Source of the DNA: a virus
Taxonomy: Duplodnaviria > Caudoviricetes
IMG/VR virus record: IMGVR_UViG_3300033406_000399
Coordinates: 1 to 41,245 of that record
Reading direction: 5' to 3' (one strand)
Length of the DNA stretch: 41,245 bases
The stretch's first letter is position 1, and the number at the start of each line of letters is the position of its first letter. The translations under genes were made by a program, and so were the position numbers. Under the pieces are notes generated by a model, which worked only from the letters and a program-made list of their open reading frames with translations, was not told the DNA's origin and made no database searches. Shown here in pieces: positions 960 to 40,672 of the stretch.

Positions 960-1217
960 CTATGGCATACTTGTTACATCAACATCTAATGGCGTATTAG
1001 TTATTTCTACAGATATAGGCTCATTTAATTGAGCGTGAGCAAGAGGCACTTTTAATGATAATTGTTTCTTTAGTTCTGGCTGTTTGGCGTTTACGAAATC
1101 CCCATAAGTCGGAGGTTTATTGATAAAAGTGCCAATAATTTGAACAAATAAAATGCCAGCTAATAAAATGCAGACTGTTAAGCGAAAACTGTTATCGCTC
1201 ACCGAAATCAACTCCAT
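960..1217 (-). CDS. single-pass membrane protein
   Basis: One N-terminal hydrophobic helix; overlaps the end of the upstream gene. Confidence 0.7.
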   Translation of the reverse strand: MELISVSDNSFRLTVCILLAGILFVQIIGTFINKPPTYGDFVNAKQPELKKQLSLKVPLAHAQLNEPISVEITNTPLDVDVTSMP

Positions 1218-1668
1218 TATTATCTTGTTGTGATGATTTCCTTAAATCTAGATAACTTTTAATTCCTGCGCCGACCCCAAATATTATAGAAATGCCGAGC
1301 GAAGAAAACTCTAATTGATGTATCTTCTCGTTAACATTATTTATCAGAGTTGTTAGTTCTTGTTTTGATGGATTATGGCCGTTGGGATATTCAACAGAAT
1401 AATTATCGCCAAAATCGTCTGGTATAGGTATATCTAGTTTGAGCAAAGTAAGTTCTGCTTCTTTTTGTTTAATTTGCATTTGCTTATCTGCTAGTTCATA
1501 ATTGGCTATTTCTTCATCGGTAGGTGGATATAAATTTAGTTTATCAGAATAAGCTGCTTCTAAACGGGTAATATCCTCATGATAATAGCTCCAAGCAAAA
1601 GGAAAAGTAACTATTAGACATACGATAAAAAATAAAATCCCGTGTGCAAATGCAATTTTCTTTGTCAT
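1192..1668 (-). CDS. membrane protein, two TM helices flanking a soluble loop
   Basis: Start moved to MTKKIAF (GGAGGAGG RBS); N- and C-terminal hydrophobic helices. Confidence 0.8.
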   Translation of the reverse strand: MTKKIAFAHGILFFIVCLIVTFPFAWSYYHEDITRLEAAYSDKLNLYPPTDEEIANYELADKQMQIKQKEAELTLLKLDIPIPDDFGDNYSVEYPNGHNPSKQELTTLINNVNEKIHQLEFSSLGISIIFGVGAGIKSYLDLRKSSQQDNNGVDFGER

Positions 1669-1806
1669 AAAACCCTCCTCCAAACATAAAGACACGGCTT
1701 GTCCAATTTGCCGTGTCTATTTATTTTGACTTGCTAGTCAAAATCATACCTCCTTTAAATGTTGATTTTGTATACTATTGCAATCACATTTAAGGTTAGG
1801 TGTTGT

Positions 1807-2007
1807 ATTATTATTTATCATATTTATTGCAGTGATTGGAGAAAGAAAAAAGGGTGGACACAAGAAGAGTTAGCTATAAGAGCGGAGATAGGCCCGTCAA
1901 CAATCGGCGAAATAGAGACATACCATAAAAGACCTAAGTTTGATGAGGTTGTCAAAATCGCCAATGCCTTGGGCATAACCGTAGAACAATTACAACAGAA
2001 ACCTTAA
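1807..2007 (+). CDS. XRE-family HTH regulator, start codon uncertain (possibly ATT)
   Basis: WRKKKGWTQEELA...IGEIE...P....KIANALG HTH_3 pattern; AGGTG at 1798-1802 precedes in-frame ATT codons. Confidence 0.75.
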   Translation: MIIYHIYCSDWRKKKGWTQEELAIRAEIGPSTIGEIETYHKRPKFDEVVKIANALGITVEQLQQKP

Positions 2008-2064
2008 ATATGGTTTAAGTGACAAAAAATGTCACTATTTGACGAGAAGATTCTGTAAATTTTT

Positions 2065-2092
2065 GCAGGAATTTGGAATTTTCCACACGAAT
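2065..2092 (+). promoter_or_regulatory. sigmaH-like promoter
   Basis: GCAGGAATTT ... CGAAT resembles the Bacillus sigmaH consensus (AGGA...GAAT). Confidence 0.45.
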
Positions 2093-2098
2093 TAACTG

Positions 2099-2155
2099 AC
2101 TCCCTATACCCAAATTTAGGCTACTTCAAAGGGTTGGCATATGGGTATAGGGAGT
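2099..2155. repeat. 14-bp perfect inverted repeat with 29-nt loop
   Basis: ACTCCCTATACCCA (2099-2112) / TGGGTATAGGGAGT (2142-2155). Confidence 0.9.
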
Positions 2156-2275
2156 GATGCTATCTATATAAATTTAGTCGAATTACTATTCGTAGCTTTG
2201 CATATTCTTTTAGACTTTGCACTAATATTTCTTCCAATTTTTACATTGATTCAAAGGAATTTTGGCGGTCAATGA
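2141..2275 (+). CDS. 44-aa hydrophobic peptide, type I toxin-like candidate
   Basis: Manual translation MGIGSDAIYINLVELLFVALHILLDFALIFLPIFTLIQRNFGGQ; start region lies in the hairpin stem. Confidence 0.4.
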   Translation: MGIGSDAIYINLVELLFVALHILLDFALIFLPIFTLIQRNFGGQ

Positions 2276-2287
2276 TGAAGTAGTTAC

Positions 2288-2301
2288 CAAACATATGTTC
2301 G
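2288..2301. promoter_or_regulatory. LexA/SOS box
   Basis: CAAACATATGTTCG differs by one base from the Firmicute consensus CGAAC-N4-GTTCG. Confidence 0.6.
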
Positions 2302-2332
2302 ATAATTCGTTGTGCAGACGGAGGTATACATC

Positions 2333-2431
2333 GTGGGTGATTCGAAGAATACTGATACTCTTGAATTGTTGGGAAGATTATTATTAGATCAAATTATTAC
2401 GAAGAAGAAAGCTTTGAAAGCGAATCAATAA
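2333..2431 (+). CDS. 32-aa peptide downstream of the SOS box
   Basis: GGAGG RBS then GTG; MGDSKNTDTLELLGRLLLDQIITKKKALKANQ. Confidence 0.45.
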   Translation: MGDSKNTDTLELLGRLLLDQIITKKKALKANQ

Positions 2432-2816
2432 TTAATCCTAGAGCTTTCCGGTGTTCAGCCGGAAGGCTTTTTAATTTGCCGAGGAGTTCAACTAATTCTT
2501 TTTCTTGTTCATCGGCTGACATTTTTAATAAATCTTGATAGGCTTCTTTTTCTTCTTCGTTCATTTCCATAGTTTTATATTTTTCCATAATCTGAGGTAG
2601 CAAATTAGCTGCCTCAGATTTATTATCGTCAAACTCAGACATCGAAACGCCAAGAGCTTGCGCTATTTTTTGAAGAGTAGCAGTTGTTGGAGATGGATTT
2701 TTGCCAGATTCTATTTGGCTAATTCTTCCTTGACCAACTCCCGCTTCCTTAGCAAGCCGATATTGTGACAAGCCCCTTTTTTCTCTTAGTTCAATAATCT
2801 TCTTGCCAATATTCAT
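2397..2816 (-). CDS. CI/ImmR-like XRE repressor without S24 peptidase domain
   Basis: HTH_3 N-terminus, helical C-terminus; divergent from the cro-like gene; start at MNIGKK after GAGGTG. Confidence 0.9.
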   Translation of the reverse strand: MNIGKKIIELREKRGLSQYRLAKEAGVGQGRISQIESGKNPSPTTATLQKIAQALGVSMSEFDDNKSEAANLLPQIMEKYKTMEMNEEEKEAYQDLLKMSADEQEKELVELLGKLKSLPAEHRKALGLIIDSLSKLSSS

Positions 2817-2837
2817 GTTACACCTCATATACATTCT

Positions 2838-2919
2838 CGTATGTATTATACATTGCAAAAATAAATTTTAAAATACTTACGAATTGGTATTGACATACAT
2901 ACGAAGACGTAAGTATAAT
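2838..2919. promoter_or_regulatory. genetic switch: rightward sigmaA promoter with operator repeats
   Basis: TTGACA 2890-2895, 18 nt, TATAAT 2914-2919; half-site ATACWTACG or its complement at 2838, 2873, 2895, 2908; near-palindrome ATACATACG-N4-CGTAAGTAT at 2895-2916. Confidence 0.85.
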
Positions 2920-2941
2920 ATAAGTGAAAGGGGGGCAGTCA

Positions 2942-3154
2942 ATGAAACTACAAGAGCTATTAAAGAAGCTTATGATAAAACAAAATGTTTCACAATATCG
3001 TCTTGGAAAAAATTCTGGCGTTTCTCAAGCCCAAATATCGCGGATTTTGCAAGGGCAACAACCGACAGTACCGACACTTGAAAAAATAGCATCAGGGCTT
3101 GGTGTTAGTGTATCCGAATTGATCGGCGAGAAACCACAGCGAAAAACTGGATGA
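2942..3154 (+). CDS. Cro-like XRE regulator
   Basis: 70-aa HTH; first gene after the rightward promoter. Confidence 0.9.
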   Translation: MKLQELLKKLMIKQNVSQYRLGKNSGVSQAQISRILQGQQPTVPTLEKIASGLGVSVSELIGEKPQRKTG

Positions 3155-3209
3155 AGGGGGCGTGATCAGGACAAGGCGTTATTACATATGATCTATTGAG
3201 GTGGTGGCA

Positions 3210-3347
3210 ATGGTAGAGCTAGTTGATTGCCCAGTAACCGCAGCGGGGCAGGAACTATTTGACAGAGCGCTTGCCGAGGTATTTCGGCGGCGACTGATCA
3301 AAGCAGCGGAACAAGCAAAGGAAAAATCTAATGACCAAGCCGGTTAA
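3210..3347 (+). CDS. 45-aa hypothetical protein
   Basis: GAGGTGG RBS; MVELVDCPVTAAGQELFDRALAEVFRRRLIKAAEQ... (read manually). Confidence 0.6.
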   Translation: MVELVDCPVTAAGQELFDRALAEVFRRRLIKAAEQAKEKSNDQAG

Positions 3348-3376
3348 TTCCGGCGCGAGAAGGGAGTAGACAAGCT

Positions 3377-3487
3377 TTGTTGAGATTTTTAAGAAGATTA
3401 TTTGGTAAGCAAAAGCCCTTGCAAATTGTTCGGGTAACACCAGAACGGGCATGGGCGCGATACTGGGCGCGTGGTGGTCAGTGGTAA
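3377..3487 (+). CDS. 36-aa basic amphipathic peptide
   Basis: AAGGGAG RBS, TTG start; MLRFLRRLFGKQKPLQIVRVTPERAWARYWARGGQW. Confidence 0.5.
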   Translation: MLRFLRRLFGKQKPLQIVRVTPERAWARYWARGGQW

Positions 3488-3548
3488 AAGAGAAGCCCAC
3501 CCCTGGGAAGGAGGTAGGCCGTAAAGTGGGGAGGGTGTTAACCTCACG
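3486..3548 (-). ncRNA. candidate antisense sRNA with C-rich anti-SD loop
   Basis: Minus-strand TCGACT-18-TACAAT promoter with TG extension (3583..3554); hairpin with CACCCUCCCCA loop; then GC/GU stem and U-rich tail. Confidence 0.55.
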
Positions 3549-3582
3549 ATTAGATTGTAGCAGAGATTAGAGGTGAAAGTCG

Positions 3583-4041
3583 ATGTATCAAGATTGCCGA
3601 AAAAGTGCCGGAATATCACTTTTAACAGCCGAAGCACTTCTAAATATGGGCAGAAAGCGAATTGTCCGGATTGAATATGGCGAAGAAGAAGTGCCGCCGG
3701 ACAAAGTTGTATTGATGGATGACCTTTATCAGGCACAAAGCCGGCTGATGATGTGGCATTGTGGTAACGGTTGCAGCGTAGGGAAGTGTCTTGGTTATCA
3801 GTATTATGAAATATCTCCAAGTTTGGCAGGGGTAAAAATACTTAACTCAGCCGAGAACATCATAAAAAAGCGGCATGATCTCTTAACCATCTTGGATGAC
3901 GGTAAGATCACGCCGGACGAATTGCCCCGCTTGGAGGACTTATGCGAGGATTATAAAACTATCAGGGCTGCATCACTAGCCCTGGAGGTAGAAAAAGAAA
4001 AACACCGTTTGAGCGGTGCGGAAAAAGAATCTCACGACTAA
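3583..4041 (+). CDS. HTH-containing phage regulatory protein (CII-like position)
   Basis: N-terminal degenerate HTH, C..C.VG, C-terminal DDGKITPDE motif. Confidence 0.75.
   Translation: MYQDCRKSAGISLLTAEALLNMGRKRIVRIEYGEEEVPPDKVVLMDDLYQAQSRLMMWHCGNGCSVGKCLGYQYYEISPSLAGVKILNSAENIIKKRHDLLTILDDGKITPDELPRLEDLCEDYKTIRAASLALEVEKEKHRLSGAEKESHD
3992..4039 (-). ncRNA. candidate OOP-like antisense RNA
   Basis: Minus-strand TTGTCA-18-TATAAT with TG extension (4075..4046); CACCG/CGGTG stem followed by a U tract. Confidence 0.55.
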
Positions 4042-4068: not shown

Positions 4069-4368
4069 TTGACAATGTTAGAAAAAGCGGTTAGACCTTG
4101 GGCAACAAGGTTAGCTGATGCAGGTACAGAGGAGTTAGTAGCCGAGTTAAAACGGCGTGGAGATATAAATGAGCTGCTTAAAGCGGTGGATCGGTATGAC
4201 ATAGCAGAGCATTTGGCGGCTGATTATGATGTGCAAGAGGTAGTAACCAGGTTTGATAATGACAATTGGTCAGTGTGTGTAGAGGGCCAGAAACCAATAT
4301 TCGGCAGCGGAAAAGCTCAGGTATTGATTGTGTTACCGCAGTACGATAAGGCGAAGGTGGCTGTGTGA
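4069..4368 (+). CDS. hypothetical phage protein
   Basis: ORF with AAGGGTG RBS. Confidence 0.75.
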   Translation: MTMLEKAVRPWATRLADAGTEELVAELKRRGDINELLKAVDRYDIAEHLAADYDVQEVVTRFDNDNWSVCVEGQKPIFGSGKAQVLIVLPQYDKAKVAV

Positions 4369-8204: not shown

Positions 8205-8532
8205 TGTACCGCCTAGCCTTAACCGGTGGGCCAGGAAACACTGGCGAAGTCAAAGCGAAATAAAAAAGCGGTGGGAACAAGAAGTATGGGCGGCGGCTGT
8301 CAATGCAAGAGTTAAGGGGTTAAACCTACTCAAAGCAAAAGTACATATCGTTTATGAGTTTAAGACAAATGCGCGCCGAGATAAAGACAATTATACTCCG
8401 AAATTTATAATGGACGGTCTGGTTAAATCGGGGGTAATCGTTGACGACAATGATTCAAACATTGACTTGTCTTGGGAATTGGCTGTGGCTGGCAGCAATG
8501 CGACGAGGATTATGATCGAGGCGGTGAGCTAA
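8182..8532 (+). CDS. RusA-like Holliday junction resolvase
   Basis: PPSLN...RRDKDNY..K.IMDGL...GVIVDDN; start at MITLILP after GGAGG. Confidence 0.8.
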   Translation: MITLILPDVPPSLNRWARKHWRSQSEIKKRWEQEVWAAAVNARVKGLNLLKAKVHIVYEFKTNARRDKDNYTPKFIMDGLVKSGVIVDDNDSNIDLSWELAVAGSNATRIMIEAVS

Positions 8533-8771
8533 TGGACGGTACAGCGGCAACGGCTAAACATTATCAGGCAGCAGAAGTACAGCCGATTGAGATTATGCAG
8601 ATGCACATGACGAAAGAGGAGTTTTGCGGATTTTGCAAAGGCAACATTATCAAATATGTGCTGAGATGTGGTAAGAAAGATGATCCAACGCAGGAGATTG
8701 CAAAAGCGAAGCAATATGCGGAGTGGCTATTTATAGCGCAGACAGGCGGGAAAATTGATCCGTGGGGGTGA
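8532..8771 (+). CDS. DUF3310 / T7 gp1.7-like protein
   Basis: HY......PIE......GFC.GNIIKY..R.GKK......KA..Y motif. Confidence 0.85.
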   Translation: MDGTAATAKHYQAAEVQPIEIMQMHMTKEEFCGFCKGNIIKYVLRCGKKDDPTQEIAKAKQYAEWLFIAQTGGKIDPWG

Positions 8772-8776
8772 GTAGA

Positions 8777-8844
8777 CAAAAAAAGAACAAGGCCACTGGC
8801 TATGGCCTTGCAAGGAGATAAATAAGGAGATTATTTGGGCTGTT
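8777..8844 (-). ncRNA. candidate sigmaG-type sRNA with tandem AUCUCCUU anti-SD motifs
   Basis: Minus-strand GTATA-18-CATAATA (8880..8851); 8-bp stem CAAGGCCA/TGGCCTTG (8788-8810) then U7. Confidence 0.55.
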
Positions 8845-8898
8845 CAGTAATATTATGCCCGGTAAATGCTGGGTTTATACATAGGGGAGGGGTTAGCG

Positions 8899-9084
8899 GT
8901 GATAGATTACGTAATTTTTAAAAAAGATATGTATTGTGATGATGCACTGCATTTTAAGGCAGGTAAAAAATATGAAATTATTGGCGAGGCTGAAGGTAAG
9001 TATGCTGTTTCTTATGGACGAAAAAATGAAATGGAGTGCTGCTTAGTACCTAAAGATTATGATGGTGTAGAAGTTTTTGATTAA
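8899..9084 (+). CDS. small hypothetical protein
   Basis: GGGGAGGGG RBS before GTG. Confidence 0.7.
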   Translation: MIDYVIFKKDMYCDDALHFKAGKKYEIIGEAEGKYAVSYGRKNEMECCLVPKDYDGVEVFD

Positions 9085-19792: not shown

Positions 19793-20455
19793 ATGATTTT
19801 TACTGCTTTACAAGATAACACTGATAGGCAGTTTGATCTACAACTATTCGCAGATGGTGAACCGGCACCTGACACTGGATTTGCTGCTGGCGATACCGGA
19901 GATGCTGGCGCACAGAGCGATACATCAGCGGCAGAAGGTGATTTGTTAACCGGTAATAGTGGTGAGGGCGAGCAAAAGAGTGAAGACGGTGAGCAAAAGG
20001 GCGATAAGCCAACTGCGCCGGAGAAATACGAAGATTTTACTATGCCAGAAGGTATGACATGGGATGCCGAAAAATCTGCTGAATTCTTGGATGTTGCAAA
20101 AGAACTGGGCTTATCACAGGAACAAGCGCAAAAACTTGTAAATGTTGGTGCAAAGCTTATCGGCGGCAGCCAGGAATCAATTCAGCAGCAAGCGGCAGAA
20201 CAAAGTAAGGCATGGCGTGAGGAAAGCCTTGCTAAGTACCAGAAAGCTGATATTGAGCTGGCTAATAAGACACTAGGCCAGTTTGCTACACCTGAGTTTA
20301 AAGAGCTATTGGAGGCTACAGGGCTGGCAAATAGTCCTGCGATGATCGGGATATTCAAGGAAATCGGCGAGGCAATAAGTGAGGGTAAGTTTATAGAGGG
20401 CAATCAGGCAACACAAAAAGAGTTGTCGCTTGCTGAAAGATTATTTGGTAAATAA
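19793..20455 (+). CDS. capsid scaffolding protein
   Basis: Acidic; APEKYEDF, AKELGLSQEQAQKL, GL..SP.M; upstream of the capsid gene. Confidence 0.85.
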   Translation: MIFTALQDNTDRQFDLQLFADGEPAPDTGFAAGDTGDAGAQSDTSAAEGDLLTGNSGEGEQKSEDGEQKGDKPTAPEKYEDFTMPEGMTWDAEKSAEFLDVAKELGLSQEQAQKLVNVGAKLIGGSQESIQQQAAEQSKAWREESLAKYQKADIELANKTLGQFATPEFKELLEATGLANSPAMIGIFKEIGEAISEGKFIEGNQATQKELSLAERLFGK

Positions 20456-20468
20456 GGAGATGATTTAA

Positions 20469-21500
20469 ATGGCTGAACTAACTAATACATGGCCTACACT
20501 GTTCAACATCAGTAAAGACTTAGATTCTAGTGGCAAACTAGCCGCTGTTGGCGAAGTATTGACCGAAACGAATGAAATACTTGACGACATTCCGTGGGTT
20601 GCAGGTAATTCCACAGGTGGTCATAAGATTAGCTTGCGCGAAAACATTCCGGCGCCAACGTGGAGACAATTTAACCAAGGTGTATATCCTAGCGTGTCAA
20701 CTACTGGTCAAATCATGGAAGTGTGCGGCACAATGAGTAACTATTCCGAAGTTGACAAGGCCTTGGCAGACCTCAATGGGAATACCGCTGATTATAAATT
20801 AAAACAGGCCAAGCCTATTATGGAAGGGTTTAACCAGTCAATGGCGTCGACTCTTATTAGCGGCGACTATGATGCTGATAATGCCAAGTTTAACGGCCTT
20901 GCTGCTAGATATTACGGATTAACGTCTAGCACTGGTGGAACTACTTATAAAAACGTTATTGGTGCTGGCGGTTCTACCAAAGCTAATGGGATAACGTCAA
21001 TCTATCTTGTTGGATGGTCTCCTAATACTGTATATGGCATCTATCCGAAAGGTTCAACCGCTGGGCTTCATATGAATGACCTGGGCGAAGTTACCTTGTT
21101 CCCAACTGCTGGCGGTCAAATGCAAGGGTATAGAACATACTTCCAATGGGATTGCGGTATGGCTGTAGAGGATTGGCGGTATGTGGTTCGCATCGCTAAT
21201 ATTGATGTTACGGCCCTGCTGACTGCTGGCGATTCAACTGATACATCAGCAAATGTCATGAAATATATGAGTATGGCTCTTGATATTCCACCGACTACTG
21301 GTAACGTACGGTGGGCTTTTTATTGTCACCCTAAAGTACGATCAATGCTCAGAGTTCAACTAATGAGCAAATCTAATGCTTGGTTGTCGCTTGAAACTTT
21401 CACCAATGGGCAAGGAATTCCACGGCCTACTCTGTCATTCATGGGAGTGCCTATTCGTCGTGTAGATGAAATGACTCTAACTGAATCTGTAATATCGTAA
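20469..21500 (+). CDS. major capsid protein (BPP-1 Bbp17-like)
   Basis: E.L.ETNEILDDIPW, WR.FNQGV, SEVDK.LA, FNGLA.RY, DWRYVVRIANID, F.GVPIRRVD. Confidence 0.92.
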   Translation: MAELTNTWPTLFNISKDLDSSGKLAAVGEVLTETNEILDDIPWVAGNSTGGHKISLRENIPAPTWRQFNQGVYPSVSTTGQIMEVCGTMSNYSEVDKALADLNGNTADYKLKQAKPIMEGFNQSMASTLISGDYDADNAKFNGLAARYYGLTSSTGGTTYKNVIGAGGSTKANGITSIYLVGWSPNTVYGIYPKGSTAGLHMNDLGEVTLFPTAGGQMQGYRTYFQWDCGMAVEDWRYVVRIANIDVTALLTAGDSTDTSANVMKYMSMALDIPPTTGNVRWAFYCHPKVRSMLRVQLMSKSNAWLSLETFTNGQGIPRPTLSFMGVPIRRVDEMTLTESVIS

Positions 21501-39161: not shown

Positions 39162-39362
39162 ATGCTAAAAAATAAACTAAAAAGTTTTCGACATAAATAT
39201 GAAATGAATCAACTAGAATTTGCTGCTTTTCTTGGCGTTAACAAATCGCTGTACAACAGGTGGGAACGGCAACAGGGGCAACCAAATAGTGTGTCGATGA
39301 TTAAATTAGCTAAAAAACTAGGGTGTAAAATAGATGACCTCTTCGAAGAAGTTCCGGATTAA
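39162..39362 (+). CDS. XRE-family HTH regulator
   Basis: KNKLK..R....MNQ.EFA..LGV....Y.RWE....QP....IKLAKKL. Confidence 0.9.
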   Translation: MLKNKLKSFRHKYEMNQLEFAAFLGVNKSLYNRWERQQGQPNSVSMIKLAKKLGCKIDDLFEEVPD

Positions 39363-39377
39363 TCTCCGGGACTTTTT
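39349..39377 (+). terminator. intrinsic terminator
   Basis: AGTTCCGGA/TCCGGGACT stem followed by T tract. Confidence 0.7.
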
Positions 39378-39382
39378 ATTTA

Positions 39383-39435
39383 TATAAATATACGCAAGAC
39401 AGGCAATTTATGCCGTATATGTGCGTATATTTATA
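39383..39435. repeat. 14-bp perfect inverted repeat upstream of the FtsK-like gene
   Basis: TATAAATATACGCA (39383-39396) / TGCGTATATTTATA (39422-39435). Confidence 0.9.
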
Positions 39436-39460
39436 AAAACTGGAAGGAGGTGTACATACG

Positions 39461-40672
39461 TTGAATATACTAACCGAAATAAAAAACGATATACGGGCCG
39501 TTATTATGCCTATGCTTGGCAGGGATATTCCCCTTGCTGTAATTGAAACTATAGAAGCGTTGTGGGCCGAAGAAAAACGGCCACAGATACATGCGAAGAA
39601 AAGAACGTCAACCGGATATACGTTTACTATTGCGCTGCCGCCAGGAATTAGCTTTAAGGACTTTTACAGTAAATTAGATTATTTTAAGGATTCTGCTGGC
39701 GGCAATAAGGTTAATACTTCAATTGTGCAAGCTGGCAAAATGGCTGTTTTGCAGATAAGCACTAATCTATTAGGCAATTATTTTGAGTATCCCCGTGACT
39801 ATCCGCTAAAAGGCATTTTGCCGGTGCCGATCGGCTACAGTACAAACGGGTTACAGGTAATCGACATTGCTACTTTGCCACATCTGCTAGTTGGTGGCAC
39901 AACCGGCGCGGGGAAAAGTAATGCTATACATGTGATAGTCAATTCACTACTGAGATTGCCAGAGCCACCACTAATAATTTTGATTGATTTAAAAATGTCG
40001 GAATACAACTACTTAGAAAATCAGGTATTGCTCGTCACCGACATTGATACGGCGTGTCAAGCATTGGCGAGACTTGTCCAGGAAATGCGGCAACGACAAC
40101 TACTATTAAAAAAATCTCGTTGCGTTGATATAAAAAAATATAATCGGCACAGCAAAATGCAGTACATAGTTCTGGTGATTGACGAACTGGCCGAATTAAA
40201 GGATAAAGATGCCCAGGAAGATTTAGAAACATTGCTCCGCTTGTGCCGAGCGTCAGGCATTTGCATTGTTGCAGCTACTCAGCGTCCATCATCAAAAATA
40301 TTCCTGTCTAAGTCTTTCGGTGATGCAAAGGCGAACTTTTCCGGGCGGCTATGCTATCAGACAATATCAGATGTTGACAGCCGGATTATCCTAGATTCGG
40401 GCGAAGGTGCAACATTGCCAGCTATTCCAGGCCGCGCATATTTGCGGATCGGCAGAGAGATTACCGAAATACAAACGCCATATTTGGACCCGGAGGAGGT
40501 GCAATATGTCGATAAATTTCCGGCGGCAGGGTTACCAACGGAACTCCCGACTAATCGAGACGTTGAAGGAATGGGGAGTGCTGGACACTCAGCAAATACA
40601 GGTGCTAATATTTCCATCGTCGCGAGTCACCCAGCGAAGGCTGAGGGCTTTGACAGAAAGCGGACGGATTAA
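39461..40672 (+). CDS. FtsK/SpoIIIE-family ATPase
   Basis: PHLLVGGTTGAGKS, LIDLK, VLVIDELAEL, RASGI..VAATQRP, SRIILD..GA..L...GRA. Confidence 0.92.
   Translation: MNILTEIKNDIRAVIMPMLGRDIPLAVIETIEALWAEEKRPQIHAKKRTSTGYTFTIALPPGISFKDFYSKLDYFKDSAGGNKVNTSIVQAGKMAVLQISTNLLGNYFEYPRDYPLKGILPVPIGYSTNGLQVIDIATLPHLLVGGTTGAGKSNAIHVIVNSLLRLPEPPLIILIDLKMSEYNYLENQVLLVTDIDTACQALARLVQEMRQRQLLLKKSRCVDIKKYNRHSKMQYIVLVIDELAELKDKDAQEDLETLLRLCRASGICIVAATQRPSSKIFLSKSFGDAKANFSGRLCYQTISDVDSRIILDSGEGATLPAIPGRAYLRIGREITEIQTPYLDPEEVQYVDKFPAAGLPTELPTNRDVEGMGSAGHSANTGANISIVASHPAKAEGFDRKRTD

Follow-up and report, generated by a model that had tools for sequence, protein, structure and literature searches.

The stretch of DNA analysed here (the window, 41,245 nt) is a podovirus-like prophage at G000:C68, with a serine recombinase just to its left and host genes on both sides. 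In the early operon a small cassette (8777..8880, minus strand) occupies the space from the stop of one early gene (8771) to the RBS of its successor (8885-8898), and is opposed to the operon. The upstream gene (8532..8771, plus strand) belongs to a nucleotide-kinase-like PHROG and has its stop about 7 nt beyond the terminator of the cassette and the end of the predicted RNA. The RBS GGGGAGGGGTTAGCG and the 61-aa phage gene downstream (8885..9084, plus strand) stand back to back with the -35 element, so that the RBS lies outside the RNA, past the -35. An RBS block, GGAGGGGTTAG(C/T)G, is repeated before small early genes at window positions 8886, 9089 and 9282 and flanks the cassette in most phages; it may be a recombination joint for module swapping. 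At the right prophage end (39162-40672) an HTH gene and a gene with an FtsK/SpoIIIE domain follow the lysis genes. A HipA-like kinase gene and the serine recombinase were seen at the left prophage end (L105:10352-12744), and the left prophage end adjoins the host yabG-sipL spore-coat genes.

On the minus strand the -35 element GTATA, of forespore sigmaF/sigmaG type (8876..8880), is followed after an 18-nt spacer by CATAATA (8857-8851). The -10 region GGGCATAATA (8851..8860) can be read as sigmaG-type CATAATA at N18 and also as sigmaF-type GGnnAnAnTA at N15, the same bases then being GTATA-N15-GGGCATAATA; the consensus letters of sigmaF and sigmaG were used for this reading. The combined sigmaF/sigmaG pattern occurs once in the window (mean 0.0 in 200 shuffles) and three times in the genome. 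From the promoter spacing and from two family models (R1 and R2), an sRNA of about 67 nt is predicted at 8778..8845. It holds two copies of an anti-SD-like motif, AUCUCCUU (8824..8831 and 8812..8819), and a stretch complementary to the capsid start region at 17 of 18 positions (8819..8836). It ends in an intrinsic terminator (8778..8811) whose stem CAAGGYC...GRCCUUG and U run are conserved in the family. The stem-loop (8811-8787) has 10 pairs with the T run after it, and folds at -15.9 kcal/mol (z -2.3); the 5' half of the predicted RNA is unstructured in the minimum-energy fold, its CU-rich stretch being unpaired. The promoter, both motifs and the terminator described in the initial annotation are thus present letter for letter, and its short, pyrimidine-rich, terminated RNA is supported. 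Its statement that there is no ORF holds on the sense strand in any useful sense: the ORF list has none of at least 50 aa over the RNA region. A 28-codon TTG frame is readable on the plus strand and, by eye, is not kept in the sister copies C20 and C117. An Rfam search, which had been proposed at the same time, gave no match up to E 10 on 8650-9000 and no relevant match for the window, the element or the homolog loci (none on the unit in 19 such loci), so this is a family without an Rfam entry.

The host genome (G000, 4.5 Mb) has sigG, spoVT, spoIIR, gpr, spoIVB, SASP, hfq and lpxA over cut-offs, and the spore-forming host that had been supposed is borne out by the sporulation genes among these. 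We infer a diderm spore-former of Negativicutes type; this lineage is taken from lpxA and the sporulation genes because the assembly yielded no 16S gene. Since the phage is integrated as a prophage, entrapment of a free phage genome, which had been mentioned as background, is not needed for it to enter the spore.

The -35 element is GTATA, ACATA, GCATA or GAATA in 46 of 46 parsed family units, and the family promoter, GTATA-N15-GGnnATAATA, is forespore sigmaF/sigmaG-like; GG stands before the -10 in 41 of the 46, and the first -10 base is variable. A matrix was built solely from the 46 units and used to score the sequence upstream of each of 4,360 predicted host genes. It was found to place four of 12 GerA germination-receptor genes in its top 40 of 4,360 (expected 0.11, p 3e-6) and 11 of 18 forespore-type genes (the 12 GerA genes and six others) in its top 10%, as against one of 10 controls. 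The genes sigG, gpr and spoVT ranked 97, 117 and 242. It failed to pick out spoIIR (rank 2,732) or the SASP gene (2,590), the latter with a plain GTATT-N17-CATGCTA upstream, and gave one false positive, the sigmaE-type spoIVA (147). The sequence and this enrichment fit the proposed forespore-sigma-type promoter. A sigmaA reading was poor, as T occupies the first -10 position in just 20 of the 46 units, 45 have at most three of the six TTGACA letters and one has a TG extension; a perfect TATAAT in 19 of the 46 counts against the forespore assignment. The available portion of PMC7438776 indicates that the sigmaF and sigmaG consensus sequences of C. difficile overlap, and the two were for this reason left unseparated. 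With transcription and sigma dependence predicted in this way, the cassette is probably an expressed forespore sRNA.

The RNA had been taken as specific to the phage. We have found, however, that seven of its 11 copies in G000 are chromosomal, with housekeeping or sporulation genes around them (a 1.4-kb stretch at C113 holds three of the seven), and that four are in three prophages (C68, C20 and two in C60). The copies nearest to that in the window are the chromosomal C117 and C113, followed by the C20 prophage copy. One chromosomal copy, at C41, has no family promoter and follows a 38-codon ORF (L490:275-391, plus strand) without a Pfam match, so that the family CU motif and terminator stand in the 3' UTR of that ORF; this may hint at the origin of the cassette. 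Full units were recovered by the terminator pattern in 12 of 36 viral loci and by a stricter pattern in 31 metagenome loci, with the same contigs partly repeated. Further pattern scans gave one true unit in 88 loci, one new unit in 63 and none in seven, and a loose pattern on genome contigs gave no unit in 120 loci. After removal of duplicates 46 units were parsed, with 41 distinct middles; four matches were unparsable. Promoter boxes and terminator stem are constant and the middle is variable, mostly 21-52 nt, with subtypes common to phages and chromosomes. Four, four and three different variants are clustered in L108, L116 and L139. Among the carriers there are four capsid families unrelated to one another, of which one goes with a tail sheath and another with a Dit tail. 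As a small number of metagenome assemblies supplied most of the phage records, these are not independent samples. The cassette occupies the same kind of site in temperate phages of podo, sipho and myo type.

Model R2 matched 24 of 151 class genomes. Four weak class matches (G006, G051, G054 and G117) were dropped, their best locus being a different element upstream of rpoB. Near-restriction to sigG genomes was observed: sigG is present in 18 of the 20 genomes with a solid match (E<1e-3) as against 53 of the 151 class genomes overall, an association that is inflated by kin genomes, and the two solid matches in genomes without a detected sigG are in assemblies that are 83% and 84% complete. By the same model no match was obtained in the sigG-less families with many genomes (21, 21, 13, 10 and 9) or in many sigG-positive genomes. 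None of 150 other phylum genomes matched, and the cultured-phage and plasmid collections gave no match.

It is conceivable that the cassette is a neutral hitch-hiker, a promoter-terminator remnant of little function copied by recombination between RBS repeats. The chromosomal copies are non-syntenic, some lying near tRNA or resolvase genes, and the flanking RBS motif is repeated in the window, as would be expected of such a remnant. The spacing and both promoter boxes are nevertheless kept while spacer and middle diverge, and a longer chromosomal form of about 100 nt, with an added inner hairpin, has double-sided changes in 8 of 23 predicted pairs (nine related sequences), mostly in that hairpin. 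Together with the near-restriction to sigG genomes, these points make the hitch-hiker the least probable of the explanations considered. In the terminator stem no double-sided change was seen, and its constancy could reflect recent copying rather than selection.

Pairing of the open C/U-rich half with SD regions was taken as the leading explanation. An anti-SD-like 5-mer is present in 39 of 40 distinct middles, as against 16.8 in shuffles (maximum 26 in 1,000 shuffles), with a motif list that was chosen after seeing the sequences. The CU-rich motif varies between copies, and mean pairing with a canonical SD oligo is slightly stronger than in shuffles (-9.0 vs -7.9 kcal/mol). No conserved mRNA target was found, the top duplex partners being different from copy to copy, with a bias towards G-rich start regions, and no host target is common to different subtypes. 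An aside in the initial annotation that host mRNAs might be targeted can be counted as supported. Comparison of own-phage with foreign start regions over 21 pairs showed no enrichment (permutation p 0.15). Targeting of holin genes was dropped, since the duplexes with G-rich start regions are rich in G:U and do not recur in the units' own phages. On the sequence evidence, action by RBS pairing is favoured slightly over the alternatives taken together. Two units of one subtype (L133:7397 and L390:2978) are predicted to pair over the start codon of rinA (host ranks 10 and 6). The rinA start region of another phage genome, G067, is not matched by the unit of that genome. A RinA-family late activator gene was noted at L133:4370-5002 (minus strand). 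One unit of the C60 prophage (C60a; L102:99-202, plus strand) shares 17 exact bases with the recT gene of its own prophage (L102, about 8317-8333), on the coding strand and in the same sense as the mRNA, and this is its best match genome-wide. A reading of the middles as guides for DNA was rejected, because apart from the recT case no unit of four complete phages rose above background in its own genome.

It was also considered that the RNAs might act as protein decoys, the protein being Hfq, a nuclease or some other RNA-binding protein, which would be bound through the terminator stem and the C/U stretch with no pairing to mRNA. The stem is conserved in its letters, beyond what pairing alone would ask for, and such decoys would fit with the lack of a common mRNA target; furthermore, CsfG, a sporulation-specific sRNA of Bacillus subtilis, co-purifies with Hfq (available portion of PMC3574147). 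Distinct middle subtypes are, however, kept across phages, and different pairing partners fit this better than one protein site, so that decoys seem improbable.

The most specific candidate target is in the window itself. The major head protein gene (phrog_212; 20469..21500, plus strand) is preceded by a ribosome-binding region (20449..20466, plus strand) that overlaps the stop of the scaffold/protease gene. The 17 of 18 match between 8819-8836 and this RBS, as originally described, was confirmed; the mismatch is A.G and leaves no wobble pair, and the region is the sole other site with at most one mismatch in the 4.5-Mb genome. It was asked how probable it is that the window copy serves mainly to shut off the capsid RBS of its phage in the forespore and thereby keeps that phage latent within the spore. 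No other of 4,327 start regions gave as good an ungapped match as the capsid (17, next best 14), and none of the 40 other real middles scored above 13 against the 64 window genes. In shuffles keeping both SD cores, a score of at least 17 against these genes was reached in 30 of 20,000 and 38 of 20,000 cases (0.15-0.19%), and the score was reached against all genes in 12 of 300. By the shuffled controls that had been called for, the match is thus better than chance at about 0.2%; over some 20 phage-unit pairs chance amounts to a few percent, and the match is suggestive. The pairing of the two other units with the RinA late activator start region points in the same direction.

Several results nonetheless stand against silencing of the capsid gene. 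Ordered by duplex energy, the capsid (-28.3 kcal/mol) comes 10th of 4,327, and 30th of 250 when rescored with accessibility; in a phage of 64 genes, at least one gene would reach rank 10 or better with p 0.14. For the units of other phages the rank of the own capsid is 966-3,736, none of five unit-capsid pairs from four phage types matching, with the capsid start regions of G066 and G063 not scored individually, and the p of 0.15 for own-phage targeting adds to this. The related capsid of G062/G069 (78% identical) has an RBS that matches the window RNA at 16 of 18 positions, yet the cassette of those phages matches it over 6 nt only. The matching stretch could be assembled from motifs already present in the chromosomal sisters C113 and C117, and, as the site overlaps the upstream stop codon, translating ribosomes would cross it. 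The complementarity was expected by the initial annotation to be conserved in relatives and was lacking in all five of the other pairs; capsid silencing is therefore not supported as the purpose of the family. A capsid-only locus search for further relatives found nothing, and terminase and portal alignments gave three more fragments, all lacking the early region. That the capsid is a real target of the window copy is thus doubtful, as is silencing as the main job of this copy, although it is possibly a one-off target. A second, 11-nt identity to the cassette template, AGATTATTTGG, lies just upstream of the capsid RBS (20438-20448) and was attributed to an internal repeat in the capsid upstream region.

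The backward placement of the cassette between a stop and an RBS in early operons suggested a further explanation, in which the backward promoter and its RNA, by a perfect duplex of about 67 bp or by polymerase collision, would act as a cis-antisense brake like lambda OOP and cut off the downstream early genes including the late activator. Units stand back to back with an opposite-strand RBS and ORF in 25 of 42 phage cases as against 1 of 28 chromosomal ones, and a convergent ORF ends within 60 nt in 25 of 42 as against 11 of 28. No phage unit was seen in the sense direction of its operon, and a RinA-family gene lies downstream in the same operon in G067 and L133. The cassette must, however, lie backwards in any case, as the operon would be cut by its terminator in the sense direction. 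In addition, one copy would be enough for a brake, yet three to four variants that differ from one another are found in clusters; no such mRNA lies opposite the chromosomal copies, and cis pairing would not need a C/U motif bias. We thus regard a brake as unlikely, if less so than the protein decoys, and pairing in trans with SD regions remains the preferred reading.

CsfG (Rfam ylbH, RF00516) is under forespore sigmaF/sigmaG control, which sequence and matrix enrichment would also fit for the predicted RNA. It is known from B. subtilis as a sporulation-specific sRNA with conserved CU-rich stretches, and as of a 2014 review the forespore sRNAs of this type had no known target (available portions of PMC4152353 and PMC3574147). 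The family resembles CsfG in being CU-rich and in its predicted type of promoter (PMC4152353, PMC3574147 and bioRxiv 10.1101/2025.03.21.644579, each as far as available), and a single-stranded CU-rich stretch is found here too, given the 5-mer counts above. CsfG is, however, about 136 nt long and single-copy between ylbG and ylbH (rsmD), whereas members of the present family are mostly 55-75 nt, or about 100 nt in the long form, and are multi-copy, non-syntenic and phage-borne. The RF00516 model, which covers the CsfG locus and for which B. subtilis passes the cut-off, had no match at E<=1 in G000; no ylbH-type neighbour is among the annotated flanking genes, and the 11 copies are at unrelated sites. 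The LhrC sibling sRNAs of Listeria monocytogenes repress by pairing near the RBS and bind Hfq (available portion of PMC13350326), and several homologous copies under one promoter type are likewise seen in the cassette family. Unlike it, LhrC is stress-regulated and chromosomal, with no sporulation sigma and no phage cassettes, and the cassette had no Rfam match.

Lambda OOP and P22 Sar are short phage RNAs with their own promoter and terminator that are antisense inside an early operon, and the cassette resembles them in lying opposite an early mRNA with a promoter and terminator of its own. They are phage-specific, depend on the housekeeping sigma and have a single defined mRNA site on which they act in cis. 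The cassette family, by contrast, occurs on host chromosomes as well and varies in its middles, and the window RNA covers neither the RBS nor the coding end of any particular gene. An antitoxin of a type I toxin-antitoxin system was rejected, because the ORFs on the other strand are not the same from copy to copy, and most chromosomal copies lack one. Phage behaviour has been coupled to host sporulation in other ways: Spo0A represses phi29 lytic genes during spore entrapment, and sporulation-like sigma factors are carried by phages (available portions of PMC9429907 and PMC12991052). Those links, as given in the same portions, are protein factors acting at transcription in lytic Bacillus phages, whereas the cassette would provide an RNA read by a forespore sigma in integrated temperate phages. 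The literature searched, with subscription papers and bioRxiv supplements outside its scope, gave no description of such a family, and the available portion of PMC8583004 contains nothing on this sRNA family.

Taken together, we favour, with a probability of roughly 0.55, a self-contained cassette of a multi-copy family, carried both by host chromosomes and by many temperate phages, whose RNA would lower forespore translation by pairing with SD regions. Polymerase with the forespore sigmaF or sigmaG would transcribe the RNA of about 67 nt, the open C/U-rich half of which would pair with the SD regions of several mRNAs, block ribosome loading and so lower translation in the developing spore. 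The base pairing might be assisted by Hfq, as hfq is present in the host and in 38 of 40 order genomes, G000 included. Phages would pick up the cassette as an exchangeable accessory module tuning host forespore translation. In the window phage capsid synthesis might additionally be held back, which we consider doubtful, and the perfect duplex that the RNA would form with the early mRNA spacer opposite could be a second effect. A bolder version, somewhat less probable still than capsid silencing by the window copy, is that temperate phages of spore-forming Negativicutes carry a retargetable silencer kit. This would have a fixed forespore promoter and terminator, a swappable guide-like middle and stacked variants, each for a different start region, tuned to the capsid RBS here and to the RinA late activator in another phage, so that the RNA shuts lytic development in the forespore. 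The cassette is a forespore-type sibling sRNA turned mobile and phage-borne, and its recurrence suggests that control over translation in the developing spore is of benefit to phages; the behaviour of prophages inside the forespore is poorly understood. The more than 40 natural variants, alike in scaffold and different in the middle, are ready material for target finding, and the capsid RBS offers one precise and cheap test case.

Other candidates of forespore type were noticed in the course of the analysis. A separate sRNA candidate with promoter and terminator lies at L489:304-432 (G000:C70, about 58870-59030, plus strand). It would be a 129-nt RNA with a long hairpin (z -3.6) and a single-stranded UUUCUCCUCUCCCAUA; its layout is CsfG-like and it has no Rfam match. 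In seven genomes of another family (L481, L482 and L484-L488) the UUUCUCCUCUCCCAUA motif forms a short element that hardly varies and is convergent with recG. Finally, a forespore-type promoter followed by two hairpins is conserved upstream of rpoB in five genomes, after rplL where this gene could be seen (L432-L435, and G000:C54 at about 4220-4340, L491), and is possibly a sporulation-linked leader or sRNA.
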